A stretch of 64,000 bases of DNA from Hyphomicrobiaceae bacterium (GCA_020442185.1 JAGRKS010000010.1:16454-80453), one strand, 5' to 3'. Positions 7,407 to 34,957 are shown, numbered from the stretch's first letter. Program-made: numbers and translations. The notes: a model not told the origin generated them from the letters alone.

Positions 7407-7723
7407 TTCGATAGCGTCGCCGGTTGCGGCCGGCCGGAGGCTACGTCTTCAGCGGTAGAGCGCAACTATCGAAGGAGGTCGGTTGCTGTCGCATGCAACC
7501 AACTGGGGTGCCCGGTCGGCGAGGGCAGCACGCTAGGGTCTAAGGGGCTGCATGATGCGGCGCCGGTCGGCATCCGCACGCATGCGACCGCCTGCTTGCC
7601 GAACAATGGGACCCTCGCGTGATGGAGACTTGCGAAGTCCGCACGAAGTTCGTGGACGATGGGAGTGCATCGGCGTGCGATGCCGCTGCGACCGTCAGGA
7701 CGACGTCCGAGGAGCCGGCTGCG

Positions 7724-8464
7724 ATGCCGCGTCGTGGCCAGGATCTACTTGGCCCTGGATCCGGCACACCTGTCGTGATCGATCTCTGGCTGGTGGATCT
7801 GCAAGCCGGCGAGGCGGAGACGCAGCGGTTGTCCGGCATCTGCAGCCGAGAAGAGCGTGAGAAGGCGGCGACCTTTCTGCATTCAGCCGACAGCCGCCGC
7901 ACGCTCGTTTGTCGTGGGCGTCTCCGCGAGATCCTCGCTCACTATGTGGGCGCTCCCCCGAATGGCCTCACGATTGGTGTGGGCCGACGCGGCAAGCCCT
8001 TCCTTGCTGAGCCAGGGTCGATCAAGTGTCGTAACAGACAGCCGTTCTTCAACGTCAGCCACTGCGGCGAGAAGGCGGCGATCGCAATATCCCTGCAACA
8101 AGATGTCGGCGTCGATATCGAGATGCCGCGCCATGTCGAACCGGAGATTGCAACGCTCTACTTCGCGGCTGCCGAGGTGGAGGCGCTCAGTCGCCTCAGT
8201 GGCGCTGCGTGGCGTCTCGGCTTCTTTCGTTGTTGGACGCGCAAGGAAGCATTCCTGAAGCTGCTCGGTTGTGGCTTGGCACGTACGCTCGACAGCTTCT
8301 CGGTGCCGATCGATGCGGACGGCGAGGCGCTGTCTGTCAGCTGCGGGGCGGCGAGTGCCAGTCGCTGGCGCTTGCAGTCGTTCGAAGACGGGACCGGGCT
8401 GATCGGCGCGGTGTGCGTCGAAAGCGGAGCGCGGCCGGTGGTCGTCAGGCGGTATTTCGCATGA
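7724..8464 (+). CDS. Sfp-type 4'-phosphopantetheinyl transferase
   Basis: ORF track gives 7619..8464. ATG 7724 gives a 246-aa protein, the usual Sfp size. Motifs: FNVSHCGEKAAIAIS, VGVDIE, WTRKEAFLKLLG. Confidence 0.85.
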   Translation: MPRRGQDLLGPGSGTPVVIDLWLVDLQAGEAETQRLSGICSREEREKAATFLHSADSRRTLVCRGRLREILAHYVGAPPNGLTIGVGRRGKPFLAEPGSIKCRNRQPFFNVSHCGEKAAIAISLQQDVGVDIEMPRHVEPEIATLYFAAAEVEALSRLSGAAWRLGFFRCWTRKEAFLKLLGCGLARTLDSFSVPIDADGEALSVSCGAASASRWRLQSFEDGTGLIGAVCVESGARPVVVRRYFA

Positions 8465-8552
8465 AGGCGCAGGCAACCCTATCGCTGGTGTGCAATCGCG
8501 TCGCCCGACCTTCAGTCGCGTCGTCAGGACTAGGAATCGTCGAGGCGACAGG

Positions 8553-10004: not shown

Positions 10005-10024
10005 AACGAAATGGAAGCACCGCC

Positions 10025-11776: not shown

Positions 11777-11818
11777 CACCCGCTGGAGGGCCGCAGCGGA
11801 CTCGGCCCGGACGATGCG

Positions 11819-13705: not shown

Positions 13706-13720
13706 CAGGCTGGCCTTGTT

Positions 13721-15331
13721 TCAGTGCGCAGGCGGAACGCCGGGCGAGCGGCGTCGCACGTCGATGACGAAGTGCCCGGCGCCGAAGCTGACATGATGGA
13801 CACCGTCGACCGAGGCAGCGAAGTCCGGCGTGATCGATCGCACCGCCTTCTCACGGTAATCACGGCGGTCGAGGCGCTCGATGACATTTATGTTGAGGCC
13901 ATAACCATAGGTGGCGAATGCGTTGATCTGTGATGGTCGGTAGAGACGCCCTCCCGCAGCAACGACCGGCCCGGCGTTACGTGCGACGGAACTGCCGATG
14001 ACGACGGGATTGCATCGATGCGGCTCGACGCGTCTCAGATCGGGTCCGTCCACCTCGAACAGGTAGAGCTCGCTCGAATGCTCCTGGAATGTGTGATGGT
14101 CCGACAGGTTGGTCATCAACCATCGCGTTCCGTCGGCGTCGAAATAGTTGGTGTCGGCGGCGAGCATCCCCTCGAGAGCGACGGCGTGCAGTTCCCAGCC
14201 GAATGGGAAGTCCGTCGACCGCCAGATCTCGAGCCGCTTGCGCTGCTGCGATTCCGGCATCATGAAAATGCTGCCGCGATGCCGGAACATGTACGGGTAC
14301 GACAAATGATGATCGAGCTTCAGTGCGATGCCGAGGCGGCGGAACCCCCCGTTCTCGAAAAGCCCGACAGAGATCCAGGCCGGTCCGCCGTCGCCATCGT
14401 CGGCCTCGTAGAACACGTATAGCCGGCCGTTGTGCTCGAACAGGAATGGGTCCGCCATATTGGTCTCTGTCCGCGTGACGGTTGCAGAGCAAGCGGGATT
14501 AAGGGAGGCGATTTCGCCCACTCCGAACCGCAGTTCCCAGTGCGGGGCGGTCTGGCGTATGCGGTCGCTCAGACGTTCGGTTGCGCGCGCGCCGAGCTTG
14601 CCACAAAGCCGCACGCCATATGCAAGAGCCGCTCGTGGTGAAGGCGACGGCGCCGCGGGTGGCGCGGGCAATGCAGCGCCAGAGTTGCCGAAGCAGCGCG
14701 TCTCTGCGATGCGCACGAGCGTTCGCTGCAGAAGAATGACCGACTTCTCGTGGATGAATGCCGCGGTCCGGGCCGAGCTGATTTTCGGATTGTAGTCCGC
14801 AGTCGATACGACAGTGCGCTGTGGTGTCCCGGTCGAGCGCGCGCACACGTCGACAGTGATTGTCGGCTCGCCGCGGAGAACTTCTGCAAACGCGGTCCAA
14901 TCGGCGGACGGATCGCGACTGTCGCAGAAGCTCAAAGAGCACTCCCCGATGCGGGCAACAGAAAGGTCGTCGCAATCGAGTTGCGTGCCGCCGAGGCGCA
15001 GCACGACGTCACATTGAGCACGCCCGCACGATCGATCCGGTGCCGAGAGGATTGGCAATTTCTCGATGCGGCTGCGGATCGGGAGAACATCGAACTCTTT
15101 GGTGCGCGCCAGAAACCGGCTGTCGGCTGCAAGGATGGTGGCGGCGATCCACGACAGAGATCGCGCCTGCGCGGGCGCTTTTGCGTTGATTCTACCGACG
15201 AGGGCGAAGCGGTCGTCGGCGGCAAGGCGTGCCAGCAGACGCCATTGCCAAGGAGTGATGGCGTCTAGGCCTTCGACCAGCAGGACGATCTCAAGCGGCG
15301 GACGTGCGGTTGCCCCGATACCCGCTTCCAA
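13721..15331 (-). CDS. Uncharacterised protein; C-terminal half resembles a GH43/GINT1-N-like beta-propeller
   Basis: The maximal ORF 13721..15514 overlaps the upstream C-T-TE gene by 224 nt. In-frame TTG 15331 (41-nt overlap) or GTG 15364 are more plausible starts. The C-terminal region (DPFLFEHNGRLYVFYEADD, HLSYPYMFRHRGSIFMMPE, DGTRWLMTN) looks like repeated propeller blades. Function is not assignable from sequence alone. Confidence 0.55.
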   Translation of the reverse strand: MEAGIGATARPPLEIVLLVEGLDAITPWQWRLLARLAADDRFALVGRINAKAPAQARSLSWIAATILAADSRFLARTKEFDVLPIRSRIEKLPILSAPDRSCGRAQCDVVLRLGGTQLDCDDLSVARIGECSLSFCDSRDPSADWTAFAEVLRGEPTITVDVCARSTGTPQRTVVSTADYNPKISSARTAAFIHEKSVILLQRTLVRIAETRCFGNSGAALPAPPAAPSPSPRAALAYGVRLCGKLGARATERLSDRIRQTAPHWELRFGVGEIASLNPACSATVTRTETNMADPFLFEHNGRLYVFYEADDGDGGPAWISVGLFENGGFRRLGIALKLDHHLSYPYMFRHRGSIFMMPESQQRKRLEIWRSTDFPFGWELHAVALEGMLAADTNYFDADGTRWLMTNLSDHHTFQEHSSELYLFEVDGPDLRRVEPHRCNPVVIGSSVARNAGPVVAAGGRLYRPSQINAFATYGYGLNINVIERLDRRDYREKAVRSITPDFAASVDGVHHVSFGAGHFVIDVRRRSPGVPPAH

Positions 15332-17978
15332 CCCCGGTCGTTCTCGCGCCTTCTCGTTCGACACGCTCAATGCCAAGTATCCTTCCTTCGACGATCCTTG
15401 CAACCTTTTGCGCCCCAACGTTCGAAATTGCGTCCTCGTGCCAGCCGGTGACGGGATAGACCGGCGTCGTGTCGTCGAGAACACCTTCCCAACCGAACAT
15501 GAGTGCAGATGCACGCGCGTTCGAGGCTTGGGTGGCGAACAGCAATGCCTCGCCGGAATATGGCTCCACGATGCTATCGCGGGTCATGTCGACAAGATGA
15601 TTGGCGATCTCGCCGAGCAGACTTTCCTCTTCAGTCAACGGTCGCACGAGGTTCCAGCGCCGCAGCAGCGCGTCGCCAAGTCCGTTCTTGCGCACGAGAT
15701 CGAATGTGGTGATGCGCCCGCTCAAGCGTTGCCCGATGTAATGCGTCCAGCGGCGCCGGCGCACTTCCCACTTGTGCAGGAACGCGGCTGCCGGAGACAG
15801 TTTCTTGAATGCGCCCGGTGCCCAGCTGTCGATCATGGCGATGCCCGCGACCTGGGCGCCGGCTTCGCGTAGGTGCCTGGCGACGTTGATCGCGACGCGG
15901 CCGTTGACGCAGAGGCCGAGGAGAACGATCGGGCGGTTGCCATACCGCTCCCTGATGCGGCTTGCGGCATCGATGCAGACGGCCTCGAATGTCATGGCCC
16001 GTTGCGCCGCGATGCTCGCGCGGTTCGGGATCCTGAGGTTCGATATTGTCAGGTTGTCCGAAAAGCGGTCGGCCAGGAGGTAGTAGAAGAAGGGATGATT
16101 TATGGTGACGATTACCGCCTGCTTGCGGTCGGCATTCCTTAATTCGATGAGTTCCCAGGCAGGCACGCGTTCGGGCTCCCGCACCTTTTCGTCGCGTCGT
16201 TGCAGAAGGGTCTCGATGGCGGACGCGAATGCGCGGAGATTGGGCGCCATGAGGAAGGCGCCGATACCGGGCTTGCAGCCGAACTCCGCATCGACGCGCG
16301 CCAGCATGCGTATGGCGAGCAGGGAATGGCCGCCGAGAGCGAAAAAGTCGCCGTCGCACGAGCTGCTGTCGATCCCGAGCAGTTCGGACCATATCCCCGC
16401 CAATCTCTGCCGGACGCCGCCTTGTTGCGGGCTCGGCGGGATTTCAACCGTCGCGTTCGTGCCATATGGCTTCGGCGTAGCTGTACGAGACGCTACATCG
16501 ATCACGTTCGATCGCGTCGGATCCGCCGGGGGGCGGGCGAGTTCGGCGGCGGCGGCCGGCTCTGTCGAGGCGGTCGGGGTCGCGGTCGTGACCATCCGGC
16601 TCGACGAAATCGCGGCGGTCGGATTCGAGAACGCCAACTCGAAGCAGGCAATGGCTTCGTCGAGCAACTTGTTGGCCGTCGTTTCGCTGAAGAGGTCCGT
16701 GCTGTATTCGACGGTCATCCGCCAGCCGTCCGGCCTGCCGATCAGCAGCATATTGAAATCGTAGAGCGTGCCAGGCGCGTGCGAAGGGCGGCTCAATAGT
16801 TCGAAGCCTTCGAATACCCGGTTCTGGAAGAAGGTCTTGCGCTGCAGATTGAAGTTTATCGAGATCAGTGGATTGCGCGAGAGGTCGCGTGTCGGTCGCA
16901 GTGCCTCGACAAGCCTGTTGAATGGCATGTTCTGATGTACAACTGCCGACTGGACCTTGCTCTTGGCGATTGCCAGCTGGTCCGCAAACGTCGAGTTCGC
17001 GTCTGTCGGCAGGCGCAGGACCAGGTTGTTGATGAAGACACCGATGAGCGGTTCGAGATCGACGTCGTCACGTCCAGCGATCTGCGTTCCGATCGTTACG
17101 TCCTTGCGGCCGGTCAGGCGGTGAAGGGCTGCGCTGATCACGCCGACGCCCAGTGCGAATACCGAAAGGTCATGAGCGCGCGCGGCTGCATCGAGGCGAT
17201 CGCCGAAGGAAGTCGGTAATGATCGATAGACGCTGGCGCCTCGTGTCGAGCGCACGGCGGGGCGGGGGAATTCGGCTGGAAGTTCGAAGTAGCGGGCGTT
17301 CTCGAGTTCCGATTTCCAGAAGCCGATGTCCGCGTCGAAGCTGCCGCTGGCCTGATAGTCGGCTTGCCACAATGCGAAATCGCCATACTGCAGGGGAAGG
17401 TCGTGGAGTTCAGCGGGTCGGCCGGTCTCGATTGCATCGGCAATGATGCCGAATTCGCGACCGAGAACGCCGATCGAGAAGCCGTCGAACACGCTCTGGT
17501 GGGCGACAATCAATAGCATCGCTCGCGTGGGGTCGAGTTGCGCCATCGTCACGCGGATCAAAGGTGGCTCGCCAAGATCGAAAGGGGCATCTGCTGTCGC
17601 GAGCGCGATCTCGTCGACGCGGCGCTCGCGCTCTTGCTCAGCCACCTTGGTCAGGTCGACGACGTCGAGCACAAAATCGACTGACGGCATGACCTCTTGG
17701 CAGGGCTCGCCGTCGCATTCCACGAGGCGTGTCCGCAGGATCTCGTGACGCTGGATGATGCGACGAAATGCGGCTTCTACAGTCGTTGCGCGCAACGCAC
17801 CGCGAATCTCCCACTTGACCGCTACATTGAGCGCGGGATCGCCGGGTCGCAGCTGGTCGAGAAACCAACAGCGAAGTTGGGTTGCCGTCAGGGGAAAGCG
17901 ATATTCCGGCAGTGCCTTGGTTTCCCTTGCAACCGCAGCGTCGCCAATGTTCTCCGAATGGCTCATGTCGATTTGCAC
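15291..17978 (-). CDS. Stand-alone NRPS C-T-TE protein (no A domain) with HQxxxDG condensation motif and Cys at the TE nucleophile position
   Basis: 895 aa. C domain is about nt 17906-16598, with active site VAHQSVFDG at 17501-17481. T domain is about 16436-16209, with GGHSL (Ser552 codon 16325-16323). TE-like domain is about 16134-15384, with GLCVNG (Cys690 TGC at 15911-15909), IAMIDSW and VTGWHED. Confidence 0.9.
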   Translation of the reverse strand: MQIDMSHSENIGDAAVARETKALPEYRFPLTATQLRCWFLDQLRPGDPALNVAVKWEIRGALRATTVEAAFRRIIQRHEILRTRLVECDGEPCQEVMPSVDFVLDVVDLTKVAEQERERRVDEIALATADAPFDLGEPPLIRVTMAQLDPTRAMLLIVAHQSVFDGFSIGVLGREFGIIADAIETGRPAELHDLPLQYGDFALWQADYQASGSFDADIGFWKSELENARYFELPAEFPRPAVRSTRGASVYRSLPTSFGDRLDAAARAHDLSVFALGVGVISAALHRLTGRKDVTIGTQIAGRDDVDLEPLIGVFINNLVLRLPTDANSTFADQLAIAKSKVQSAVVHQNMPFNRLVEALRPTRDLSRNPLISINFNLQRKTFFQNRVFEGFELLSRPSHAPGTLYDFNMLLIGRPDGWRMTVEYSTDLFSETTANKLLDEAIACFELAFSNPTAAISSSRMVTTATPTASTEPAAAAELARPPADPTRSNVIDVASRTATPKPYGTNATVEIPPSPQQGGVRQRLAGIWSELLGIDSSSCDGDFFALGGHSLLAIRMLARVDAEFGCKPGIGAFLMAPNLRAFASAIETLLQRRDEKVREPERVPAWELIELRNADRKQAVIVTINHPFFYYLLADRFSDNLTISNLRIPNRASIAAQRAMTFEAVCIDAASRIRERYGNRPIVLLGLCVNGRVAINVARHLREAGAQVAGIAMIDSWAPGAFKKLSPAAAFLHKWEVRRRRWTHYIGQRLSGRITTFDLVRKNGLGDALLRRWNLVRPLTEEESLLGEIANHLVDMTRDSIVEPYSGEALLFATQASNARASALMFGWEGVLDDTTPVYPVTGWHEDAISNVGAQKVARIVEGRILGIERVEREGARTTGVGSGYRGNRTSAA

Positions 17979-18024: not shown

Positions 18025-19599
18025 TCAGCCACCCTTCAGGCTTCGGATCAGGACAGGAAAGTCGCGGGCGCGCAGCACGGCCACTCCGGTGAGGTAGAGG
18101 AGGGCCGCCGGTATCGCCGTGACGAGCAGCGTTACGAAGGGTGCGGCGCCGCGTGCGATGGCCTCGTCGCGGACGATCAGCGCGAGCACGGCCATGCCGA
18201 GCAGAACGGGCAGCAGGAAGATGCATCGGGCGGCGATGCGACGCCAATCGAGGCCGAGCACGCGCGTGTGGAGCCAGATCGTCGTCGCGAAAATGACGAA
18301 GCCCGAGGCAACCTGCGCCCAGGCGACGTGGATCACATCTACTTGCGAGGCCGGTAGTATGAGCGCGATTGCAACGACTGTGTTGAACAACGAAATGCGC
18401 GGCATATAGCGCATTTTGCCGGTCAGCCCCAACATGGGCTCGCTGAACACGGCCGGCGCGAGAAGCAAGCTGGCGAGTGCGAGTAGCGTGACGACTGGTG
18501 CGGCCGGTCGCCAGGCGTCGCCGAGCAGGAGTCCGAGAAGCTCCTCGGACATGATCGCGATTCCGAGATAGGTCGGCGCCGCGAGAGCGAGGAGGAGCGG
18601 CACCATCCACTCGAGTGCCCGTTGCATGTCGGCAGTCGCCGCAGGCCCGGACGGGTCGCCGTGGGGTGATGTGACCTTCCGCAAATGCAGCCATGTGATC
18701 GCGCGTGCCGGTTCGGAGAGGAGTTCGTGGACCGAGCCCAGAAGGCGCTGGCTTGCGCGGAAGAAGCCGACGCTTGCCGCACCGAGAAACGCCCCGATGA
18801 TGAAGGTGCTGAACGAATCACGGATGTTGCCGAGGATGCGCGCGCTTAGAACCGTCGATGAAAAATACGCGACGTCCTTGACGACGTCTTTGCTCACGCG
18901 CAATGACGGATACTGCCCCGTGAGGAACGTATAGCATGAGAGTTGCAGGCACTGAGCGGCTATCCGGGCGAATACCAAGGATGCCGCGCCGACACCCGCA
19001 GTGAGCAGCCAGAGCGCAATTGCGATACCGAACAGTTCGCCTGAAATCTCGCATGCGGCCGCGGCGCCCAACCGGCCCTGGCGGATCAGGATGGCCGCCT
19101 GCGCATCGGCTATCGGTGCGATCAAGATCCAGATTGAAAACAACAGCAGGAGAAGCGGGATCGTGGTCTGTCCCGTGACTTTGAAAACGATTCCGGCTGC
19201 GGTAGCCCCGACGAGAGCGACGGCCAGGCCCGTTGCGAACGCGATCGTGAGAACTTCCGACAACAGCTCCGGCGTGCCGCGCACACTCAGGATGTAGCTG
19301 TTGAAGCCCGCGAGCGCGACGACAACGGCGATGGCTGCTATTGCTGAAACGAGTGCATAGATTCCGAATTCGGTGGGCCCGAGAAAACGCGCTCCGACGA
19401 TGAATATTGCAAGCTGAGCCAGTTGCCGCGCGAGGCGGGCCGCCGCTATTCCGAGGCCGCCGAAGATGTAGCTACGGCCTGCCGGTTCTGCCGTGCGTTG
19501 AGGATCTGACAATTCGATGCTCGCGAAATTTGATTGAGCGGGCGCGAGATGTTTCGCGACGGCCGGCCTATGGGAGCCTTGGCCAGCGACATTCGACAT
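18025..19599 (-). CDS. Wzx-type oligosaccharide flippase (polysaccharide biosynthesis protein, MOP superfamily)
   Basis: The maximal ORF starts at GTG 19653; the first ATG is at 19599. Polytopic membrane protein with ARFLGPTEFGIYALV near the N-terminus, typical of the PST/Wzx family. Confidence 0.8.
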   Translation of the reverse strand: MSNVAGQGSHRPAVAKHLAPAQSNFASIELSDPQRTAEPAGRSYIFGGLGIAAARLARQLAQLAIFIVGARFLGPTEFGIYALVSAIAAIAVVVALAGFNSYILSVRGTPELLSEVLTIAFATGLAVALVGATAAGIVFKVTGQTTIPLLLLLFSIWILIAPIADAQAAILIRQGRLGAAAACEISGELFGIAIALWLLTAGVGAASLVFARIAAQCLQLSCYTFLTGQYPSLRVSKDVVKDVAYFSSTVLSARILGNIRDSFSTFIIGAFLGAASVGFFRASQRLLGSVHELLSEPARAITWLHLRKVTSPHGDPSGPAATADMQRALEWMVPLLLALAAPTYLGIAIMSEELLGLLLGDAWRPAAPVVTLLALASLLLAPAVFSEPMLGLTGKMRYMPRISLFNTVVAIALILPASQVDVIHVAWAQVASGFVIFATTIWLHTRVLGLDWRRIAARCIFLLPVLLGMAVLALIVRDEAIARGAAPFVTLLVTAIPAALLYLTGVAVLRARDFPVLIRSLKGG

Positions 19600-19653
19600 G
19601 CCGTCCCGCTGTTGAAGCCAGATAAGCACCGGGCGCCTAGCATGTCTCACCAC

Positions 19654-19917: not shown

Positions 19918-21849
19918 ATGGTTTCAACTGAGGGTGCGACACGGGCGTGTCAGCCGGAGATCTGCGCGAGCTATCCGCGCGATTCTTGCGTCCACGAGGT
20001 GTTTACAGCGGTGGCTGCCGGGCGGCCCGGGGCCGTCGCCCTGATCGAAGGCGATCGGGAACTCACGTACGGCGACGTCGATGCGCGGACGAACCAGATC
20101 GCGCGCCGCATGCAGCAGCTGGGCGTCGTCCCCGGTTCTGTGGTCGGCTTTCTCAGCGTCCGCTGCATCGACACGCTGCTCGGCTGGCTGGCGGCGTTGA
20201 AATGCGGCGCGATCTACATGCCACTCGATCCATCTTATCCGATACAGGCGCTGGAGCACCCGATCGGCGAAGCGAACCCCGTCGTGATCTTCGCCCAACG
20301 CAGCCACTTCGACATCCAACAAACCATTCTCGGTCGGCAAGCCCACGATCTCGAGCACGAATGGTCCGAGGCCGAACACCTGTCCGATGCGCCGCTGCCA
20401 GAAATCGGGGCGGCGACCGACGCCGCATATGTCATGTACACGTCCGGCTCGACCGGCAGGCCCAAGGGTGTCCTCGTCACCCATCGCGGCATCTTGCGCC
20501 TCAATGTGGGCCAGGAATTGCTCACTCTCGATGCCGCCGACTGCACTCTATTCGCAGCGTCTTTGACCTTCGACGTCTGCACGCGCGATGTGTGGGGCGC
20601 GTTGCTCAACGGCGGCCGTCTCGCCATCGTTTCGGGCACGCGCGTCTCCGTTCACGAGTTGGCCGATGCCATCGTCAGCTACGACGTGACGGTCTTCAAT
20701 ACGACGGCCGCACTGTTTCATCTGCTCGTCGAGCATTCCCTCGAGACTCTGGGCCGGCTCAGGGTGTTGATCGTCGGCGGCGATGTGATGTCGGTTCCGC
20801 GGGCATTGGAAGCCGTGCGCGCGCACCCGACCCTCAACTTGTACAACGCCTATGGGCCGACGGAAAATGCCACCATTTCGACCTGGTTTCGAGTTCCCGC
20901 GGAGGGCTGGGGTGACGGCCCCGTGCCGATCGGGCGTGCTTTGTCCAACAGCTCCGCTTATGTCCTGGATGACCAGCGTCGTCCCGTGGCTGCCGGTGAA
21001 GCGGGTACGCTCTGGGTTGGCGGCGATGGGGTTGCGCTCGGCTATCTGAAACGACCCGATTTGACGTGTGAACGCTTCTGCATCGATCCGTTCAGAGCGG
21101 AGGTCGATGCCCGCATGTACAACACCGGTGATCTCGCCAGATTGCGCGCGGACGGCAACATCGAATTCATCGGCCGGCAGGACCGCCAAGTGAAGATCGC
21201 GGGCAAGCGGATCGAACTCGACGAGATCGAGCACGTGATCCGGCAGAACACCGACGTCGCGGATGCCGCGGTCGTCCTGCAGCATCGCGGCGGCGACGAC
21301 AAGCGCATCATAGCCTTTGCGGCAGCCGTATCGACTGCCGCCAGATTGCGGCTGACACAAGCGCTCGCACTGCAGCTTCGCGAGACCCTGCCGGAGCACA
21401 TGATACCGGCGGCATTGCACATCCTCGACGAGCTCCCGATCACCACCAACGGCAAGATCGATCGCGCAGCCCTCATCGCGCGTGCGGTTGTCGACGTGCC
21501 GGCGCAGCGCGTGGTCGACGACCCGCACGAAGACATCGAGAGCCGCCTGATCGCGATCTGGAAGGCTGCATTGAAGATCGAGCGAGTGGGCAGGACGGAC
21601 AACTTCTTCGATCTGGGCGGCAGGTCGTTGCAGATTCTCGAGGTGCACGCCGAGCTGCGTCGGACAATTGCACCGGACATCGCGGTCATCGAATTGTTCC
21701 GTCGCCCGACAATCGCAAATCTTGCGGCCTACCTGAAATCTGGCGGGGCGTCCGACACGGAAGCGATGACAGCCGCAAAAGATCGTGCCGCTCAACAGAA
21801 ACGCGCGCTTGCGAGGGCGCGCTCACAGCGAACGAAGACAGCAAGATGA
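19918..21849 (+). CDS. NRPS loading didomain protein (adenylation + thiolation)
   Basis: 643 aa with GAGGA upstream of ATG 19918. A-domain cores: LTYGDVDARTNQIA, YVMYTSGSTGRPKG, NAYGPTE, YNTGDLARLRADGNIEFIGRQDRQVKIAGKRIELDEIE, NGKIDRAAL. T domain: FFDLGGRSL (Ser570 codon 21625-21627). Its stop overlaps the next start (ATGA at 21846-21849). Confidence 0.92.
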   Translation: MVSTEGATRACQPEICASYPRDSCVHEVFTAVAAGRPGAVALIEGDRELTYGDVDARTNQIARRMQQLGVVPGSVVGFLSVRCIDTLLGWLAALKCGAIYMPLDPSYPIQALEHPIGEANPVVIFAQRSHFDIQQTILGRQAHDLEHEWSEAEHLSDAPLPEIGAATDAAYVMYTSGSTGRPKGVLVTHRGILRLNVGQELLTLDAADCTLFAASLTFDVCTRDVWGALLNGGRLAIVSGTRVSVHELADAIVSYDVTVFNTTAALFHLLVEHSLETLGRLRVLIVGGDVMSVPRALEAVRAHPTLNLYNAYGPTENATISTWFRVPAEGWGDGPVPIGRALSNSSAYVLDDQRRPVAAGEAGTLWVGGDGVALGYLKRPDLTCERFCIDPFRAEVDARMYNTGDLARLRADGNIEFIGRQDRQVKIAGKRIELDEIEHVIRQNTDVADAAVVLQHRGGDDKRIIAFAAAVSTAARLRLTQALALQLRETLPEHMIPAALHILDELPITTNGKIDRAALIARAVVDVPAQRVVDDPHEDIESRLIAIWKAALKIERVGRTDNFFDLGGRSLQILEVHAELRRTIAPDIAVIELFRRPTIANLAAYLKSGGASDTEAMTAAKDRAAQQKRALARARSQRTKTAR

Positions 21850-24800
21850 CAAACGTCGAAGCGGATGACGATGAATTCGGGCGTGAACAGTCCGATCCAT
21901 CAATGCAAGGGGCCATTGCGATCGTCGGTGTCGCGGGGCGCTTCCCCAAGGCGAAGACGATTGGCCAATTCTGGCAGAACCTCGTCGAGGGCCGAGACTG
22001 TGTCACCCACTTCGCGGCGCACGAGCTCGAGGATTGCTTCGACGATGAAACGCGCTGTTCTGACGCGTTCGTAAAAGCGCGCCCCATCGTTGACGACGTC
22101 GAGCTGTTCGACGCCGAGTTCTTCGGCATGTTCTCGCGGGAAGCGGCGCTGACCGATCCGCAGCACCGGTTGTTTCTCGAATGCGCCTGGGAAGTGCTCG
22201 AGAGCGCGGGCTATGATCCTGCTGCCTATCCCGGCGCGATCGGTGTTTTTGCTGGCTGTAGCTTGAGCACGTATCTTCTCAACCACGTCTGCACGGATCG
22301 ATCGGTTGTCGAGCGGATCGCGTCGGACTACCAGCTCGGCAGCTTTCCGATCCTGATCGGCAGTATCCAAGATGTGCTGGCGACGCGCGTCGCATACAAA
22401 CTCGATCTTCGCGGACCGGCCGTCACGCTCGGTTCGGCGTGTTCGACGTCGGCCGTCGCGATCGTCCAGGCCTGCCAGAGCCTCATGCTGTACCAGGCCG
22501 ACATGGCGATCGCGGGCGGCGTGTCGGTCTCGTTCCCGCAGAAGCGGGGCTACATGTATCTCGAAGGTGGCATGGGAGCCGAAGGCGGTGTGTGCCGCCC
22601 ATTCGATGCCAACGCACGTGGCACGATATTCGGCAGCGGTTGTGGTGCGGTGCTGCTGAAGCGGCTCGAGGATGCGATTGCCGATCGCGATCATATCTAT
22701 GCGGTGGTGCGCGGGTTCGGCATCAACAACGACGGCGGCAACAAGGTGGGCTTCACGGCACCGAGCGTCGATGGACAATCCGCCTGCATCGCCGCCGCGC
22801 ACGCCATGGCCGACATCGACGCCGGCACGATCGGCTATGTCGAGGGGCACGGAACCGCGACTCCGCTCGGCGATCCAATTGAATTCGCGGCACTGAAGCA
22901 GGCATTCCAGGGATCGACGGCAAGACGCGGATACTGTGCGATCGGCTCATCGAAGGCCAACATCGGCCACCTCGATGCGGCGGCAGGCGTCACGGGCCTG
23001 ATCAAGGCCGCTCTCTGCCTCGATAGCAAGATGATACCGCCGCTGGCGAATTTCGAAACGCCGAATCCGGCGCTCGATGTCGAGAACAGCCCCTTCTACT
23101 TTCCGAAATCGCTTCAGCCGTGGGAATGCAGAGAAAGTCCTCGGCGCGCTGGTGTGAGTTCGTTCGGTGTCGGCGGCACGAATGTGCATATCGTTCTCGA
23201 AGAGGCGCCGGCGCGCGCGATCGAAGTGCAAGACGATGCAATCGATAGGCCCCATGTGTTGCCGCTGGCGGCGCGCAGCGAAACCGCGCTGGCCGCGATG
23301 CGCACGGCACTCGCCGATCATATCACCGCGACGCCTGATGTGAGGCTTGCGGACATCGCCTTCACCCTTCAGTCGGGTCGCAAGCCATTCGCGTACCGCA
23401 GTGCCGTTGTGGCACGCTCAGCCGACGAGGCCGTTAGGCAGTTGCGCGCGGCACCCGCGATCACCGGGAATTCAGCGGATAACTTCGCGGACGGCGGTGC
23501 AGGGGCCGCATTCATGTTTCCCGGTCAGGGCGCGCAATATCCCGGCATGGGGCGGGCGCTCTACGAGAGCGAGCCGATCTTCCGCGATGTCGTCGATCAG
23601 GGAGATGAGATACTGCGGCCGGTGATCGGCGAGAGCATGGTCTCGTTGCTCTACGGCGAGACCCCGACAGATGATGAGGCACCACATCCGATTCGCTCGA
23701 CGATCCTCGCGCAGCCAGCGCTTTTCATAATCGAGCACGCCGTCGCGAGACTGTGGATGAGCTACGGCGTAACGCCGACGGCGATGATCGGGCACAGCGT
23801 CGGCGAGTTCGTTGCGGCGTGCCTCGCTGGCGTGTTCTCCTATGAAGATGGCTTGAAGTTGATTGCCGCGCGCGGACGACTGATGCAGTCGGCGCCCGGC
23901 GGTGCGATGCTTGCCGTCCGGGCTGACGAGGCGGCGGTGCGCGGACTTCTCTCCCAAGATTCCGAGATTGCCGCCATCAACGCGCCGAACCTCTGTGTCG
24001 TTGCTGGTCCTTTTGCAGCGATAGATGCGCTCGAGGCGCGGCTCGAATTGGCAGGTCTTATCGGCCGGCGGCTGCACACATCGCACGCATTCCACTCCGC
24101 TATGATGGACCCTGTCGTTCCGGCTCTTGCCGACGTCGTTGCCGGCATGCGGCTTAACGCACCGGAAATCCCCTACATCTCTTGTGTCAGCGGCACCTGG
24201 ATCACCGCGGCCCAGGCGACCGACCCCAGCTATTGGGCCGGGCACTGTCGCGCGACGGTTCGCTTCGCCGACGGAATCGCGGTGCTGCGCGAGAATGGCG
24301 ACGTTGCAATGATCGAGTGCGGCCCCGGCCGAACGCTTGCGACATTCGCGGCGCAATCGCCAGGCAAGGCGCCGAACGGTCGTCGTCGCGCGGTCATAAC
24401 GAGCATGCCCGAGTTCGCGGATGCGGAGAGATGCAGGGAGCATTTCCTGGAGGCGCTGGCGCGGTCGTGGTGCGATGGCAGCGCCATTTCCTGGTCGCGT
24501 CTTGAGGGCGCTGGCAGCCGTAGGGTGCCATTGCCGACGTATCCCTTTGAACGCTCGCGGCATTGGATCGATGCGCCGGCCTCGGCTTCGCGCAGCGGCA
24601 CGGGTGTGCCATCGGCGGCGATCCAGCAGGCAGCCGCGCCGGCGGTCGCAACGGGGGCGATGAACGCTGCCAGTCTCGGAAGTGATGCATGTTCGATGCC
24701 GACAGCGGCGGTCGCAACTGCGGTGGTCGCGACGACCACAGTCGATCAATCCGTTCAACAGGAAAACGACAACATGAGCGAACGTGAGCGCGCGTTGGGT

Positions 24801-27800
24801 CAGCAGGTTCTGAGGCTTCTGGAAAAGCTGTCGGGTGCATCGCTCGATAGCGCGGCACTCGATACCAGCTTCGTCGAGCTGGGCTTCGATTCCCTCTTCC
24901 TCGGCCAGCTTGCGACGGAAGTGAACAAGGCCTTCGGCGTCAAGATCGCGTTCCGCAAGCTGCTGCGCGAGTATCCATCGGCGACGGCACTGGCGGCGCA
25001 TCTTGCTGCGACGCTGCCCGCTTCGGCTGCGCCCCCGCCAATCGCCGCGGATGGCGGTGCCGCGCCCCTTGCACCAACCGCACCTGTTGCCCAGGCCGTC
25101 GCTGTCACAGCGACCGCGCCTGTCGCTGTGAACCCGAATGCGACGGCGACCGTGACGCTGCAGAAGGCGCCGCAGCCGATCGAGAGCGCGGTTCCCGGCG
25201 CGGCTTCGAGCAGTCTCATCGAAACCGTGCTGCGCGATCAGATGACTGCCATGCAACAGCTGATGTCGCGGCAACTCGACCTTCTGCAAGGCACCGACTT
25301 ACGCCAGAGCGCTGCTGTCGCGGCAACGCCACCCGCAGACGCCCGGCCTGTCGCGACGAACGTCGAAGCGGGCTCGCCGCATGCAACGACGTCGCCGGCG
25401 CCCGCGGTCCAAGTGATTTCCAGCGGCGATGCAGGCGGGGGAGCGGAACGGTCCCGCTTCGATGCCTACAAGCTCGTCAAGGGCGGCAAGGATACGCGCG
25501 GGACGACGCCGGCGCAGGAGAAATTCATCAGCAGTCTCATTCAGCGCTACAACGCACGGACCGCGTCGTCGAAGAGCTTCACGCAGCAGCATCGCAAGGT
25601 GCTGGCTGATCCGCGCACAGCCAATGGCTTCCGCTCCGAGTGGAAGGAGATGGTGTATCCACTTGTCTGTCCGCGATCGAAAGGCTCGAAGATCTGGGAC
25701 CTCGATGGGAACGAATACGTCGATCTCGTCAACGGCTACGGTCCGATCGCCTTCGGGCACGCACCGGAGTTCGTAACCAAGGTCGTCGCGGAACAGCTCG
25801 AGAAGGGATTCGCGATCGGTCCGCAAAGTCCGCTTGCGGGCGAGGTTGCCGACCTCTTCGTCGAGATGACGGGCAATGAGCGCGTCACGTTCTGCAATAC
25901 GGGTTCGGAAGCCGTGATGGCCGCGATGCGTCTGTCCCGCGCTGTGACTGGGCGCTCGCGCATCGTCACTTTTGCGGGGGCCTATCACGGCCAGTTCGAC
26001 GAAGTGATCGTCAAGGGTAATCCGAAGGGCCGCGCGCCGGGTGCCAACCCGGCGGCCTCGGGCATTCCGCCCGAACTTGTCTCCAACATAATCGTGCTGC
26101 CTTACGGCACGCCCGAAAGCCTCGAATTCATCCGCGCGCACGCAGGCGACCTCGCCGCCGTATTGGTCGAGACGGTGCAAAGTCGGCGACCCGGCTTCCT
26201 GCCCGAGGCGTTCCTTCGCGAACTCAGGGAGATCACCGCCACGTCGGGTGCCGCTCTGATCTTCGACGAGGTCGTGACGGGCTTCCGCGTGCATCCAGGT
26301 GGCATGCAGAGCTATCTCGGCATCCGCGCTGATCTCGCGACCTACGGCAAAGTGGTTGGCGGCGGCCTTCCGGTCGGCGCACTCGCGGGCAAGGCCGAAT
26401 TCATGGATGCGCTCGACGGCGGCCATTGGCAATACGGCGATGATACGGTGCCCGAGGTTGCGCCGACATTCTTCGCTGGCACATTCGTGCGGCATCCGCT
26501 CGTTCTGGTTGCGATGAAAGCGGTGCTCGAACATCTCAAGGCCGAAGGACCGGCGCTTCAGGAACGATTGGCCGAGCGCACGCGCGGCCTCGTCGGCGAT
26601 ATCCGCGCGGCCTTCGCGCGGCGTGGCATCAACGCAAGCATCGAAACGTTCAGCAGCTATTTCCATATCGACCTTTCAGGCTGCGGCCCGCTTGCGGCGC
26701 TGTTTTATCCGCTCATGCGGCTCAACGGCATTCATATGCAGGAAGGTTTCCTCGGATTCCTGACGACAGCGCACAGCGATGCGGATCTGGCGCTTATCGT
26801 CAGAGCTGTCGAGCGCAGTCTCGACGAACTGGTCGCGGCGGGGATCCTCGGCGCCGGTGATGTGGGTGCAGTGGCTTTGGCGGCACCCGCAACCACAACG
26901 AAACCGAAACCGGCAATGGAACCGGCACCGGCCGCGGCTGCGCTTGCGGCCACGGCCTGCGACGAGTGCGATGCAGCGCTGCCAGTCGAGCAGGTGGTGC
27001 CGCTGACGGAGGTGCAGCGTGAGATCTGGATGGCGGCGCAGATGGGCGATAGGGCGTCGTGCGCGTTCAACGAATCGGCGAGTCTCCGGCTCGAGGGCGC
27101 CGTGGACGTCGACGTGCTCATCGAAGCCGTCAATGATGTGGTCGGTCGGCATGACGCGCTGCGCGCCAGCTTCGGCGCGACCGGCGAGCGCATGCGTGTC
27201 GCCTCGGCCGTGCGTCTCGACGTCGCGCTCGTGGATTTCTCCCGCGCGCCTGATCCGCAAGCAGACTTCGCGGCGCTGATCGCAGCGGATGCCGCAACGC
27301 CGTTCGATCTCGCGAATGGCCCGTGTGCGCGTGCGATTGTCGTCAAGGTGTCCGAGACGCAGAGCATTCTCGTCTTCACGGCACACCACATCGTCTGCGA
27401 CGGCTGGTCCATGAACATCATCATGAGCGAGCTTTCGTCATTCTACGATGCGCGCAAACGTGGTTCGACGGCAGCCCTTGCGCCGGCACTGTCCTATTGC
27501 CGCTACGCGCGCGATGAGGCTGCGAAGGGTGGTGCCGACGCGGATGTCGAAGCCTTCTGGCTCGAGCAATACAAGACGGTTCCTGCGTGGCCGGAACTGC
27601 CGAGCGACAGGCCGAGACCAGAGCGGCGCACCTACGGTGGGGCGACGTACTGCGATCAGATCGACCGGGATCTCTATCGGCAGGTCAAGCAGGCCGGCGC
27701 GCGGGAAGGCTGCACGCTGTTCGTCACGCTGTTCGCGGCGTTCCAGGTCTTGATAGGGCGGCTAGCACAACACGACGACGTCGTTGTCGCCGTGCCCATG

Positions 27801-30185
27801 GCCGGGCAAAGCCTCGTCGACGACGGGGATACCCTGGTCGGGCATTGCGTGAACTTCCTTCCGCTCCGTGTACCATTCGCCTTCGACACCGCGTTCTCCC
27901 GGCATCTCAAGTCCGTGAACGAGCATGCGCAGGAGGCCTTCGACCGGCAGGACTATACACTCGGAACGCTCGTGCGCCGCCTGGCGCTGCCGCGTGACAT
28001 GAACCGGCTGCCATTGACCGAGCTGCAGTTCAATCTCGAGAAGATCGGCGGCAACCTCGAATTCGCCGACCTCGAAGCGTCCATCGGTGCCAACCCGAAA
28101 TCGTTCTCGAACTTCGACATCTTTTTCAACGTCATCGAGAGCGCTGTTGGCCTGCGCATCGAGTGTGACTACAACACCGACATTCTCGATCGCGACACCA
28201 TTGCACGCTGGGTATCGCACTATTGCAATCTGCTGCGCGAAGTTGTCGCGAACGCGGACCAGCCGATTGGTGCGATCCCGCTGCTCAGCGAGCAAGAACG
28301 CACCTGGTTGATTGATGATCTCAACAAGACAGCCTGTGTCTTTCCGGTAGGAGCAACCGCGCACCGCCTCATCAGCGACCAGGCGAAACGTGTGCCAGCG
28401 AACATCGCCGTTCAGTACGCAGACGCCACCATGACCTATGCCGAGCTCGAGGACGCCGCCAATCGCATGAGCCGCCATCTTTCGCGGCTGCTGCCGGCGC
28501 CCGGATCTCGCGTCGCGGTCGCACTCGATCGATCTCCCGACATGCTGGTGACGCTGCTTGCCATCATGAAATCGGGACACGCCTACGTGCCGCTCGATCC
28601 CGATCATCCCGAAGAGCGACTGCGTCTCGTGCTCGAAACCGCGAGGCCGGCGGCGCTCGTTTGCAACCGTCCTGCGATCGCGGATCTCGCCCCATCGGGC
28701 TGCGCCCTCGTCCACATCGATCGGGATCGTGGGGCAATCGCCGCCGAGGCGAGCATGCCACCGGCGTGTGCCGATGCATCGCCGGCAGATCCCGCGTACG
28801 TGATCTTCACGTCTGGGTCCACCGGCACCCCGAAGGGTGTCGAGGTGCCGCACCGCGCACTGACGAACTTCCTGCTGTCCATGCAGGCGTCGCCCGGCTT
28901 CAGTGCCGAAGATACGATCGTTGCGGTGACGACCGTGTCGTTCGACATCGCTGTTCTCGAGCTGTTGCTGCCGCTTGTCGCCGGCGGCCGCGTCGTTATT
29001 GCAAGCCGGGATGATGTGAAAGGTGGCTTCGGTCTGGTCGACCTGATCGCCTCGAGCGGCGCGACGATGCTGCAGGCAACGCCGTCGCTGTGGCGGATAC
29101 TGCTCGAGGCCGGCTTCAGGCCGCGCAGCGGATTGAAGATGCTTTGCGGTGGCGAACCACTGCCGCGTGATCTGGCGGATGCGCTCGTCGCGACCGGCGG
29201 GGAACTCTGGAACATGTATGGCCCGACGGAGACGACGGTATGGTCGAGTATGGCGAAAGTCGGGACTGGCCCCATCGTGATCGGTGAGCCGATCGCCAAT
29301 ACGCAGCTGCATATTCTCGATCAACGGGACCAGGTGCAGCCGATCGGCATACCTGGACAGCTGCACATCGGCGGCAATGGACTGGCGAACGGCTACTTCG
29401 ATAGGCCCGATCTGACGCAGAACGCATTCGTCGAGATCGCTCTCGCGAGGCGTGGCACGTCACGGCTTTATCGTACCGGCGATCTTGCCGTCCGGCGTGC
29501 CGATGGATCGATCGATTTGCTCGGACGCATCGACCAGCAAGTCAAATTGCGCGGCTTCCGCATCGAACTGGGCGAGATCGAGGCGGCCATCAGGGCGGTT
29601 CCTGGAGTGACCGACGCGGCCGTGGCCTTGCGCTCAGTGGCTGGCAAGGACCCGCGTCTCGTCGGCTACTATGTGCTCGCGGAAAATTCGCGGCTGGCGA
29701 CGTCGGATCTCTCCGAACGATTGACGCATGCCCTTCCCGACTACATGGTGCCGACGGCATGGAAGCAACTCGATCGATTGCCGATGACGCCAAACGGCAA
29801 ACTCGATCGCAAGGCGCTTCCCGATGTCGAGCAAGCTGGTGTCATCGTTCGTGACGTGCCGCAGTCCCTGCCGTCGACGCCGACCGAGATTGCGCTCGCG
29901 GCGATCTGGCAGGATGTGCTCGGGCTCGAGAGCATCGGTGTTCACGATGGCTTGTTCTCGCTCGGCGCGGATTCCCTACAGGTGTTCCGCATCGCCGCGC
30001 GGTTTGGTGAGTGTGGCATCAAGCTGCAAGCGAAGCATCTGCTGGAGCATCCGACAATCGCCGAGCTTGCAGCATTTGCCGACGCGCAAGTTGGTGGTGA
30101 TGCAGCGGTAGGTGGCAAAGTTGCATCTCTGCGCGAGTTCCGCCACGGCGCCAGGCGGCGCGGGCTCATTGGCGGGGCAGCGTGA
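21846..30185 (+). CDS. Hybrid PKS-NRPS megasynthase, KS-AT-ACP-AMT(PLP aminotransferase)-C-A-T
   Basis: 2779 aa.
- KS about 21903-23190: GSACSTS Cys199 at 22440, EGHGTATPLGD, KANIGHL.
- AT about 23511-24430: GHSVG Ser651 at 23796, HAFH at 24084-24095.
- ACP about 24800-25020: LGFDSL Ser1016 at 24891.
- An Ala/Pro-rich linker follows.
- Class-III aminotransferase about 25490-26830: YGK Lys1502 at 26349.
- C about 26990-28300: HHIVCDG at 27384.
- A about 28350-29830: YVIFTSGSTGTPKG, NMYGPTE, YRTGDLAVRRADGSIDLLGRIDQQVKLRGFRIELGEIE, PNGKLDRKAL.
- T about 29885-30095: LGADSL Ser2710 at 29973.
- No terminal TE or R domain. Confidence 0.95.
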   Translation: MTNVEADDDEFGREQSDPSMQGAIAIVGVAGRFPKAKTIGQFWQNLVEGRDCVTHFAAHELEDCFDDETRCSDAFVKARPIVDDVELFDAEFFGMFSREAALTDPQHRLFLECAWEVLESAGYDPAAYPGAIGVFAGCSLSTYLLNHVCTDRSVVERIASDYQLGSFPILIGSIQDVLATRVAYKLDLRGPAVTLGSACSTSAVAIVQACQSLMLYQADMAIAGGVSVSFPQKRGYMYLEGGMGAEGGVCRPFDANARGTIFGSGCGAVLLKRLEDAIADRDHIYAVVRGFGINNDGGNKVGFTAPSVDGQSACIAAAHAMADIDAGTIGYVEGHGTATPLGDPIEFAALKQAFQGSTARRGYCAIGSSKANIGHLDAAAGVTGLIKAALCLDSKMIPPLANFETPNPALDVENSPFYFPKSLQPWECRESPRRAGVSSFGVGGTNVHIVLEEAPARAIEVQDDAIDRPHVLPLAARSETALAAMRTALADHITATPDVRLADIAFTLQSGRKPFAYRSAVVARSADEAVRQLRAAPAITGNSADNFADGGAGAAFMFPGQGAQYPGMGRALYESEPIFRDVVDQGDEILRPVIGESMVSLLYGETPTDDEAPHPIRSTILAQPALFIIEHAVARLWMSYGVTPTAMIGHSVGEFVAACLAGVFSYEDGLKLIAARGRLMQSAPGGAMLAVRADEAAVRGLLSQDSEIAAINAPNLCVVAGPFAAIDALEARLELAGLIGRRLHTSHAFHSAMMDPVVPALADVVAGMRLNAPEIPYISCVSGTWITAAQATDPSYWAGHCRATVRFADGIAVLRENGDVAMIECGPGRTLATFAAQSPGKAPNGRRRAVITSMPEFADAERCREHFLEALARSWCDGSAISWSRLEGAGSRRVPLPTYPFERSRHWIDAPASASRSGTGVPSAAIQQAAAPAVATGAMNAASLGSDACSMPTAAVATAVVATTTVDQSVQQENDNMSERERALGQQVLRLLEKLSGASLDSAALDTSFVELGFDSLFLGQLATEVNKAFGVKIAFRKLLREYPSATALAAHLAATLPASAAPPPIAADGGAAPLAPTAPVAQAVAVTATAPVAVNPNATATVTLQKAPQPIESAVPGAASSSLIETVLRDQMTAMQQLMSRQLDLLQGTDLRQSAAVAATPPADARPVATNVEAGSPHATTSPAPAVQVISSGDAGGGAERSRFDAYKLVKGGKDTRGTTPAQEKFISSLIQRYNARTASSKSFTQQHRKVLADPRTANGFRSEWKEMVYPLVCPRSKGSKIWDLDGNEYVDLVNGYGPIAFGHAPEFVTKVVAEQLEKGFAIGPQSPLAGEVADLFVEMTGNERVTFCNTGSEAVMAAMRLSRAVTGRSRIVTFAGAYHGQFDEVIVKGNPKGRAPGANPAASGIPPELVSNIIVLPYGTPESLEFIRAHAGDLAAVLVETVQSRRPGFLPEAFLRELREITATSGAALIFDEVVTGFRVHPGGMQSYLGIRADLATYGKVVGGGLPVGALAGKAEFMDALDGGHWQYGDDTVPEVAPTFFAGTFVRHPLVLVAMKAVLEHLKAEGPALQERLAERTRGLVGDIRAAFARRGINASIETFSSYFHIDLSGCGPLAALFYPLMRLNGIHMQEGFLGFLTTAHSDADLALIVRAVERSLDELVAAGILGAGDVGAVALAAPATTTKPKPAMEPAPAAAALAATACDECDAALPVEQVVPLTEVQREIWMAAQMGDRASCAFNESASLRLEGAVDVDVLIEAVNDVVGRHDALRASFGATGERMRVASAVRLDVALVDFSRAPDPQADFAALIAADAATPFDLANGPCARAIVVKVSETQSILVFTAHHIVCDGWSMNIIMSELSSFYDARKRGSTAALAPALSYCRYARDEAAKGGADADVEAFWLEQYKTVPAWPELPSDRPRPERRTYGGATYCDQIDRDLYRQVKQAGAREGCTLFVTLFAAFQVLIGRLAQHDDVVVAVPMAGQSLVDDGDTLVGHCVNFLPLRVPFAFDTAFSRHLKSVNEHAQEAFDRQDYTLGTLVRRLALPRDMNRLPLTELQFNLEKIGGNLEFADLEASIGANPKSFSNFDIFFNVIESAVGLRIECDYNTDILDRDTIARWVSHYCNLLREVVANADQPIGAIPLLSEQERTWLIDDLNKTACVFPVGATAHRLISDQAKRVPANIAVQYADATMTYAELEDAANRMSRHLSRLLPAPGSRVAVALDRSPDMLVTLLAIMKSGHAYVPLDPDHPEERLRLVLETARPAALVCNRPAIADLAPSGCALVHIDRDRGAIAAEASMPPACADASPADPAYVIFTSGSTGTPKGVEVPHRALTNFLLSMQASPGFSAEDTIVAVTTVSFDIAVLELLLPLVAGGRVVIASRDDVKGGFGLVDLIASSGATMLQATPSLWRILLEAGFRPRSGLKMLCGGEPLPRDLADALVATGGELWNMYGPTETTVWSSMAKVGTGPIVIGEPIANTQLHILDQRDQVQPIGIPGQLHIGGNGLANGYFDRPDLTQNAFVEIALARRGTSRLYRTGDLAVRRADGSIDLLGRIDQQVKLRGFRIELGEIEAAIRAVPGVTDAAVALRSVAGKDPRLVGYYVLAENSRLATSDLSERLTHALPDYMVPTAWKQLDRLPMTPNGKLDRKALPDVEQAGVIVRDVPQSLPSTPTEIALAAIWQDVLGLESIGVHDGLFSLGADSLQVFRIAARFGECGIKLQAKHLLEHPTIAELAAFADAQVGGDAAVGGKVASLREFRHGARRRGLIGGAA

Positions 30186-31987: not shown

Positions 31988-32329
31988 CGACGCGTCGAAC
32001 GACTAGCCGCGTGGGACCTTCGCAATTCTTCTGCGTTTCGAGAGGTTGCGGCAAGGCTTTCAAAGGACGTAGCGGCGACGTGTCAGGCACCTTTGCTTAA
32101 CACTTACGGGGGGCTTTTGAGCGTTTGACACCGTGCTTCGGCAATCGGCACCAGCGGGTTGCAATTTGGCGCGAGCGCAACGGGGCACGCCCCATGGCGC
32201 ATTTCAGATGGTGCGCGGTATTCCACGGTGCGGCAGGCTGCGGAAATGGCGATCGACCGAGACCGCCCGAGGGCTCTTGCGCTGGAATTTGGCGGGTGTT
32301 TTTAGCTGAATAAGTCAGCTGAATAAGAA

Positions 32330-32359
32330 TGTGAGCGGAACCTTATGGCGCCGCTCACA
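32330..32359 (-). terminator. Probable intrinsic terminator downstream of the LuxR-type regulator gene
   Basis: A 9-bp stem, TGTGAGCGG (32330-32338) with CCGCTCACA (32351-32359), around a 12-nt loop. It lies about 35 nt past the stop at 32394. On the minus strand it is followed by the T-rich ATTCTTATTC. Confidence 0.45.
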
Positions 32360-32393
32360 GCTTTCAGTTTCAGCACCGCATCAAGAGCATCGT

Positions 32394-34954: not shown

Positions 34955-34957
34955 GAC

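Follow-up and report, generated by a model that had tools for sequence, protein, structure and literature searches.

Each of three departures from the usual organisation of non-ribosomal peptide synthetases (NRPSs) has precedent: modules that lack an adenylation (A) domain, condensation (C) domains without the second His of their HHxxxDG motif, and thioesterase (TE) domains with a Cys nucleophile. All three were found together in the product of one gene, located at 15291-17978 on the minus strand of a 64,000-nucleotide stretch of DNA from a Hyphomicrobiaceae bacterium (GCA_020442185.1, JAGRKS010000010.1:16454-80453; the whole stretch is termed the window). This product is a C-T-TE protein, T being a thiolation domain, and the novelty lies in the conserved co-occurrence of the three features within a large, uncharacterised family whose genes sit inside glycan clusters. 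Literature searches, limited in reach, returned no paper on this cluster family.

Among described systems, HMWP1 of yersiniabactin has an A-less module that is loaded in trans, SyrC and CmaE use an active-site Cys, and the Pks13 TE hands its acyl chain to a sugar, trehalose. The A-less module CmnI is loaded by the A domain of another module, CmnA-A1 (PMC12400406), while LgnA, a type II thioesterase, loads the A-less C1-T1 of LgnD from the A1-T0 of LgnB (PMC8748450). CysB, SyrC and CmaE have been described as carrier-to-carrier shuttles (PMC7966384). For C domains, the second His has been found to be dispensable in several cases, its role now being seen as the positioning of the acceptor amine (PMC10510592).

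Few Cys-nucleophile NRPS thioesterases have been studied, and discussion of them usually centres on the formation of strained rings. In ObiF and SulM the triad Asp follows strand beta7 (position II), SulM having a Q-C-N motif; among solved NRPS thioesterases a Cys is otherwise present only in AB3403, the Asp of which is at position I (PMC11298585). The product of the AB3403 pathway, Ac-505, contains glycine and is suspected by its authors to have an electrophilic precursor (PMC5376624). This is the only studied pathway having an AB3403-type TE.

Domain organisation of the C-T-TE protein

The open reading frame (ORF) is intact, ends with a stop codon at 15291-15293 and encodes 895 amino acids (aa) when counted from the GTG at 17978. 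The database copy of the protein begins at Met5, and the ATG at 17966 is the likely start in vivo, giving 891 aa. A Pfam scan identified Condensation (aa 28-466, 269 bits), PP-binding (aa 524-588) and Thioesterase (PF00975; aa 632-722, 31.6 bits against a cut-off of 26.4, with the match covering only profile positions 16-106 of 226), and no AMP-binding domain was found in the protein. A sequence-only reading made earlier had proposed this A-less architecture, and the motifs and codons it had quoted (HQSVFDG, GGHSL, GLCVNG, IAMIDSW and VTGWHED) were all located where it had placed them. The features are as follows.

16581..17897 (-): Condensation domain, aa 28-466 (Pfam), LCL-like by best solved matches
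17481..17501 (-): C3 motif HQSVFDG, aa 160-166, with Gln161 encoded by CAG at 17496-17498
16410..16580 (-): linker rich in Pro, Ala and Thr in the usual place of an A domain, aa 467-523
16215..16409 (-): thiolation domain T3, aa 524-588
16323-16325 (-): Ser552, phosphopantetheine attachment site, in GGHSL (motif from aa 549)
15333..16154 (-): type I thioesterase fold with a long helical lid, aa 609-882
15909..15911 (-): Cys690 (TGC), nucleophile-elbow residue in GLCVNG (motif from aa 688)
15828..15830 (-): Asp717 in IAMIDSW, triad Asp at position I (after beta6)
15438..15440 (-): His847 in VTGWHED, triad His

Conservation among homologues

A search of 5.8 billion proteins returned 696 relatives at E <= 1e-10, and the best 120 of these were aligned. 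These showed 40-59% identity and came mainly from Rhizobiales and Rhodobacterales, with Rhizobium, Sinorhizobium/Ensifer, Nitratireductor, Chelativorans and Ruegeria among the host genera. Cys690, Asp717, Gly688, Gly693 and Ser552 were invariant in 120/120, and His847 was kept in all 119 sequences aligned at its position. At position 161, Gln was found in 93 homologues, His in 21 and Asn in 6. Judged by this alignment, the Cys690, Gln161 and A-less features are conserved rather than chance.

An A-subdomain is held between C and T by 38 of the 120, and the A10 lysine position is not conserved there, from which it follows that the ancestral module was C-A-T-TE and lost its A core long ago. A split A domain, with this remnant completed by an A core in trans, was considered and set aside, as the unconserved lysine position makes the remnant look vestigial. 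Homologues of 1390 aa were considered as modules with a decayed A core and were found instead to be C-C-Asub-T-TE. Such tandem C domains (about 1390 aa) were observed in P0047, in P0070 and at 10001-14173 of locus L085.

Thioesterase domain

An AlphaFold2 model of aa 596-895, built from 61 sequences (mean pLDDT 90.5), places the Cys between strand 89-94 and helix 96-110, the Asp directly past the next strand and His847 after a late strand. Comparison of this model with the PDB using Foldseek returned Pks13, AB3403, EntF, NocB, Vlm2 and polyketide synthase (PKS) thioesterases, at probability 1.00. The best solved match by sequence was the AB3403 TE (E 2.6e-6), its GWCFGG elbow aligning with GLCVNG and the Asp of its MID motif with Asp717; EntF aligned alike, with its serine elbow GYSLGG at Cys690 and its LLD aspartate at Asp717. 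A G-x-Nu-x-G elbow was found as G688-L-C690-V-N-G693, accompanied by D717 and H847, with Cys instead of Ser. By score, fold and triad, the domain is assigned as a type I thioesterase (PF00975, alpha/beta hydrolase), and release activity is predicted for it. The sequence-only reading had put Cys690 at the nucleophile elbow with Asp and His candidates as partners, and alignment and model agree with this, the partners being the invariant Asp717 and His847. No other Ser was found at the elbow, and the Foldseek matches are to a catalytic thioesterase fold and not to a non-catalytic alpha/beta family.

With the TE piece as query, phmmer retrieved 388 matches at E <= 1e-3 from 1.84 billion cluster representatives (50% identity). 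Among the best 150 of these the elbow residue was Cys in 132, Ser in 7 and Gly in 3, with 8 fragments missing the elbow. By architecture, the same 150 were distributed as follows, with 9 more sequences having other, rarer architectures.

C-T-TE: 51 sequences, elbow all Cys
C-TE, with T below threshold: 18 sequences, 15 Cys and 3 Gly
C-A-T-TE: 13 sequences, elbow all Cys
A-T-TE: 10 sequences, 9 Cys and 1 Ser
shorter pieces: 46 sequences (23 T-TE, 23 TE alone), mostly Cys

The Cys elbow is therefore a clade-wide trait, with or without an A domain in the module. The earlier description of Cys-nucleophile NRPS thioesterases as rare holds among studied enzymes but not within this clade, given 132 Cys among the 150 nearest representatives.

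Condensation domain

The best solved matches of the C domain were TycC6 (2e-63), followed by Txo2 and Txo1, and on these matches to elongation C domains it is judged to be LCL-like. Gln161 aligned to the second His of HHxxxDG in TycC6 and Txo2; the second His expected of an LCL domain is absent, the motif reading HQSVFDG. Strong conservation was seen in motifs C1, C2 and C4-C7 and in the HxxxxDG core, the second His being the sole exception. His, Gln and Asn at position 161 are interspersed among close relatives, with HH in P0005 (53% identity) and HQ in P0002-P0004. By analogy with the role now given to the second His, Gln or Asn at this position could position the acceptor amine likewise.

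The replacement had been read as loss of the residue usually treated as catalytic. Gln161 is real, but it need not signal a dead or exotic C domain: because the other C motifs are kept, His, Gln and Asn interchange, and the second His is dispensable elsewhere, the domain likely remains able to condense.

Terminal position and upstream assembly line

The window contains an assembly line composed of a loading didomain and a megasynthase of ketosynthase (KS), acyltransferase (AT), acyl carrier protein (ACP), aminotransferase (AmT), C, A and T domains, together with a phosphopantetheinyl transferase.

19918..21849 (+): A1-T1 loading didomain with an amino-acid adenylation domain, approximate code DVRNIGATIK
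21846..30185 (+): KS-AT-ACP-aminotransferase-C-A2-T2 megasynthase of 2779 aa, without a TE and ending in a T domain
7619..8464 (+): Sfp-type phosphopantetheinyl transferase

Eight other loci were compared with the window (L001, L084, L085, L086, L087, L088, L089 and L090). In seven of them (L001, L085, L086, L087, L088, L089, L090) the C-T-TE gene was found directly after the synthase, its start lying 4 nt before the synthase stop in L001, L085, L086, L087, L088 and L090, and 29 nt past it in L089. In the window and in Ruegeria (L084) the two genes are divergent. Since the synthase ends in a T domain and the C-T-TE gene directly follows it in seven loci, the protein is assigned, from gene order and domain content, as the terminal module of a line A1-T1 / KS-AT-ACP-AmT-C-A2(Gly)-T2 / C-T3-TE. 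This bears out the earlier proposal of a release module serving the TE-less megasynthase. The C domain of the megasynthase itself reads HHIVCDG (aa 1847), as had also been claimed earlier.

Analogy with iturin would make A1-T1 a fatty-acyl-AMP ligase. This was ruled out by two results: its score with TIGR01733, the model for amino-acid adenylation, is 377.7 bits (cut-off 317.4), and in L084, L088 and L089 it is found fused to the KS. The KS retains its Cys, His and His, and the AT has GHSVG and HAFH, the latter predicting selection of malonyl. The specificity code of A2, read via alignment to GrsA motifs, is DILQLGMVWK, with DILQLG[MV][IV]WK in all seven lines read, and predicts activation of glycine. 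The A1 code differs by locus, being DVRNIGATIK in the window, to which no substrate could be assigned, Val/Ile/Leu-like in rhizobia and Gln/Glu-like in L088. With A1 variable and A2 always reading as glycine, the family probably makes a series of related products. The predicted upstream chain is a 3,4-diamino acid (an amino acid plus a C2 unit, transaminated) joined to glycine.

No further A domain was found in the 64 kb by tblastn with both adenylation sequences, the sole extra match being a weak T-domain similarity, and none was found by Pfam scans of the large window ORFs. A scan of genome contigs with generic NRPS motifs returned only unrelated synthetases. Scans for promoters and terminators gave counts at chance level. 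The ORF at 8490-10004 (+) encodes 504 aa without a family match and is 29% identical to an unannotated gene of L088 (15334-16827); its product may be a cluster-specific component.

Partner protein and glycan genes

The C-T-TE gene is flanked on its own strand by a partner gene and a flippase gene, and a gene for an initiating glycan enzyme lies further along the window.

13721..15331 (-): partner gene of 536 aa, overlapping the C-T-TE stop by 41 nt (Pfam GINT1_N)
18025..19653 (-): gene for a Wzx-type flippase, next to the C-T-TE gene on its upstream side
31019..31987 (-): initiating phosphoglycosyl transferase (Bac_transf)

In a model of the partner protein (pLDDT 92.5), the C-terminal part folds as a five-bladed beta-propeller, with matches to GH117, GH43, GH130 and GH32 enzymes, and the N-terminal 260 aa form an alpha/beta domain for which no match was found in Pfam, NCBIfam or a PDB profile search. 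A copy of the partner gene adjoins the C-T-TE gene in L001, L084, L086, L087 and L090 and lies nearby in L089 (6/8 loci), and the taxon range of the partner family is similar to that of the C-T-TE family. In L085 a PAF-acetylhydrolase-like hydrolase was observed in place of the partner gene, with further NRPS/PKS genes after it. In the window, the same-strand run of Wzx, C-T-TE and partner genes ends with a CocE/NonD-family (S15) hydrolase at 11819-13705 (-), which is absent from the other loci examined.

Glycan genes of the window were found to include those for Wzx, Wzz, Wza, GT2, two GT4, the phosphoglycosyl transferase and a sugar-type C-methyltransferase. Glycan sets made up of mixes of Wzx, phosphoglycosyl transferase, GT2/GT4/GT41, DegT and Wza are also present in L001, L086, L087, L088, L089 and L090, six of the eight loci compared, and a DegT aminotransferase occurs in four of these six. 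At the cluster edge, 33434-36985 (-) encodes the sugar-type C-methyltransferase (Methyltransf_13/14) and a DUF4214/glycoside-hydrolase-like protein, a pair that suggests a branched-sugar polysaccharide. The G+C content of 32001-34000, around the gene for a LuxR-family regulator (32394-33146), is 0.56 compared with about 0.62 elsewhere. Outside the cluster, ORFs were identified for an animal-haem-peroxidase-like protein (47949-49406), a RoxA-like cytochrome c (50949-52823), an adenylate cyclase-AAA-TPR protein (52886-56014) and a class 3 lipase-subtilase fusion (59457-62123).

Proposed chain release and alternatives

Alongside the observed or computed domain order, motifs and their conservation, fold, synteny and predicted glycine code, we infer trans loading, C-domain activity, an acyl-enzyme on Cys690 and the nature of the off-loading nucleophile. 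A1-T1 would activate an alpha-amino acid, to which KS-AT-ACP would add one malonyl unit; the aminotransferase domain would turn the resulting beta-keto group into a beta-amine, and C-A2-T2 would add glycine. T3 would then be aminoacylated in trans, most likely with glycine from A2, because the module has no A domain of its own, and the C domain with Gln161 would form the peptide bond. For such loading, CmnI with CmnA-A1 offers a direct precedent (PMC12400406). The chain would pass from T3 to Cys690 as a thioester acyl-enzyme on the Cys-His-Asp triad and be off-loaded by acyl transfer to an acceptor of the co-encoded glycan pathway. This acceptor would be a hydroxyl or amine of a sugar, and the translationally coupled beta-propeller protein may present it. 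Loading in trans, condensation and passage of the chain by the Cys TE to a glycan-linked acceptor is put forward tentatively, as a reading with somewhat less than an even chance of being correct. It takes up an earlier suggestion of transfer to a sugar, with which the conserved glycan genes and the GH43-like partner are in keeping.

A more specific form of this reading, which we regard as rather unlikely, is a device coupling the thiotemplate to the glycan, whereby the Cys TE would relay the diaminoacyl-glycyl chain as a thioester, and the receiving sugar, presented by the GH43-like propeller, would belong to a polysaccharide precursor that depends on Wzx. In a variant of it, T3 may receive the chain from the TE, and release onto a free amino sugar may fall to the His-less C domain. 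An amino sugar as acceptor was a candidate that did not stand, as no DegT or GMC homologue was found in the window. If real, such coupling would give alphaproteobacteria a widespread means of attaching assembly-line peptides to exopolysaccharides.

Several points weigh against transfer to a glycan. The missing DegT homologue means that an amino-sugar acceptor is not general, and no glycan genes were found in the 10 kb visible on one side of the Ruegeria gene (L084). Foldseek fails to set the Pks13 TE apart from ordinary releasing TEs (E 4e-12 vs 2e-11, TM about 0.55-0.6). As Cys also occurs in modules with their own A domain, it need not reflect a special acceptor. The aminoacylation of T3, and the choice of A domain for it, are themselves predictions.

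One alternative is that the domain is an ordinary releasing TE, Cys690 taking the chain and water freeing a linear acid, with the glycan genes independent or acting later. A type I TE fold placed C-terminally after a T domain would be consistent with this, hydrolysis is the default chemistry of such domains, and a clade-wide Cys implies no special adaptation of the C-T-TE protein. Acyl transfer is nevertheless favoured over hydrolysis because no conserved enzyme able to re-activate the free acid was found among the loci and because a sugar-binding protein is translationally coupled; glycan genes and this partner accompany the line in most loci, and hydrolytic release is considered unlikely. 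Ring closure, the main idea of the sequence-only reading, in which the beta- or gamma-amine would attack the Cys690 thioester to give a 7- or 8-membered lactam (10- or 11-membered if T3 adds a second glycine), draws on the two free amines left by the aminotransferase and the unacylated A1 amino acid, on the ease of ring closure at glycine, and on the fact that characterised Cys TEs are cyclases (PMC11298585). However, the Asp is at position I and not at position II as in ObiF and SulM, there is no Q-C-N, the predicted C-terminal glycine has no beta-nucleophile, and the coupled sugar-binding partner would be left unexplained, so that cyclisation appears distinctly unlikely.

Two further alternatives change the role of a domain. 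In one, the Cys domain would be a carrier-to-carrier shuttle, taking an aminoacyl or peptidyl group as a thioester from T1 or T2 and loading T3 with it, with release left to the C domain or the partner. This is attractive because both anomalies, the missing A domain and the Cys for Ser, are explained at once, and there are published precedents in LgnA (PMC8748450) and in CysB, SyrC and CmaE (PMC7966384). The same Cys elbow is nevertheless found in 13/13 C-A-T-TE and 9/10 A-T-TE relatives, which have their own A domain, the domain matches PF00975 as a type I TE and is fused C-terminally as in releasing TEs, and the loci share no other conserved release enzyme; a shuttle is thus held to be very improbable. 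In the other, the C domain would be a non-catalytic scaffold comparable to the glycopeptide X domain, with T3-TE obtaining the chain otherwise. The second His is replaced in 99/120 homologues and there is no cognate A domain, as a scaffold would allow, but the strong conservation of C1, C2, C4-C7 and the HxxxxDG core, the HH retained by 21 homologues and the lack of a P450 or other recruited enzyme conserved nearby make this the most improbable of the explanations.

By the counts given above, the Cys-TE clade is far larger than the handful of studied cases, Cys being the rule of a broad clade of which AB3403 is the only solved member. Culturable hosts (Sinorhizobium, Ensifer, Rhizobium, Nitratireductor and Ruegeria) make the family a practical system in which to ask what the Cys serves. 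The steady association with Wzx, phosphoglycosyl transferase, glycosyltransferases and the partner suggests that bacteria associated with plants and algae have a surface glycan decorated with peptides, which would be of interest to symbiosis and biofilm biology.

Comparison with known systems

Glycopeptide X domains, which have degenerate C motifs, lie between T and TE and have P450 partners, differ from the C domain described here, in which the other C motifs are conserved and which is N-terminal; Pfam scans of the ORFs flanking the synthase genes found no P450. The TE of Pks13 (Mycobacterium tuberculosis) was the top Foldseek match (E 4e-12, TM 0.55-0.60), the margin over other TEs being small; it has a Ser nucleophile, is 19% identical and is part of a PKS.

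CmnI/VioI and HMWP1 of yersiniabactin likewise have C-T or Cy-T modules that lack an A domain and are served by that of another module, as T3 would be. CmnI, unlike the C-T-TE protein, retains HHxxxD and has no TE. SyrC, CmaE, CysB and LgnA have an alpha/beta-hydrolase fold and carry aminoacyl groups between T domains to A-less modules (PMC8748450, PMC7966384), but they stand alone, LgnA with a Ser, whereas the TE described here is fused to its module and matches PF00975.

A Cys nucleophile in an NRPS type I TE is shared with ObiF1 and SulM, which form a beta-lactone and a beta-lactam. In these enzymes the C-terminal residue bears a beta-hydroxyl or beta-sulfamate nucleophile (PMC11298585), whereas the residue just upstream here is a predicted glycine. 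The link to strained-ring TEs drawn in the sequence-only reading was consequently not upheld, given this glycine without a beta-substituent, an Asp at position I (following beta6) and an L-C-V-N motif in place of Q-C-N. AB3403 (A1S_0115, Acinetobacter baumannii, PDB 4ZXH/4ZXI) has both the Cys elbow and the Asp after beta6 (position I), and the ligand modelled in its A domain was glycine, given as an example of a substrate. It differs in being C-A-T-TE with its own A domain and in belonging to a lipopeptide-type operon without glycan genes. The Asp at position I and the absence of a Q-C-N motif place the TE of the C-T-TE protein with the AB3403 type and not with the ObiF/SulM type.

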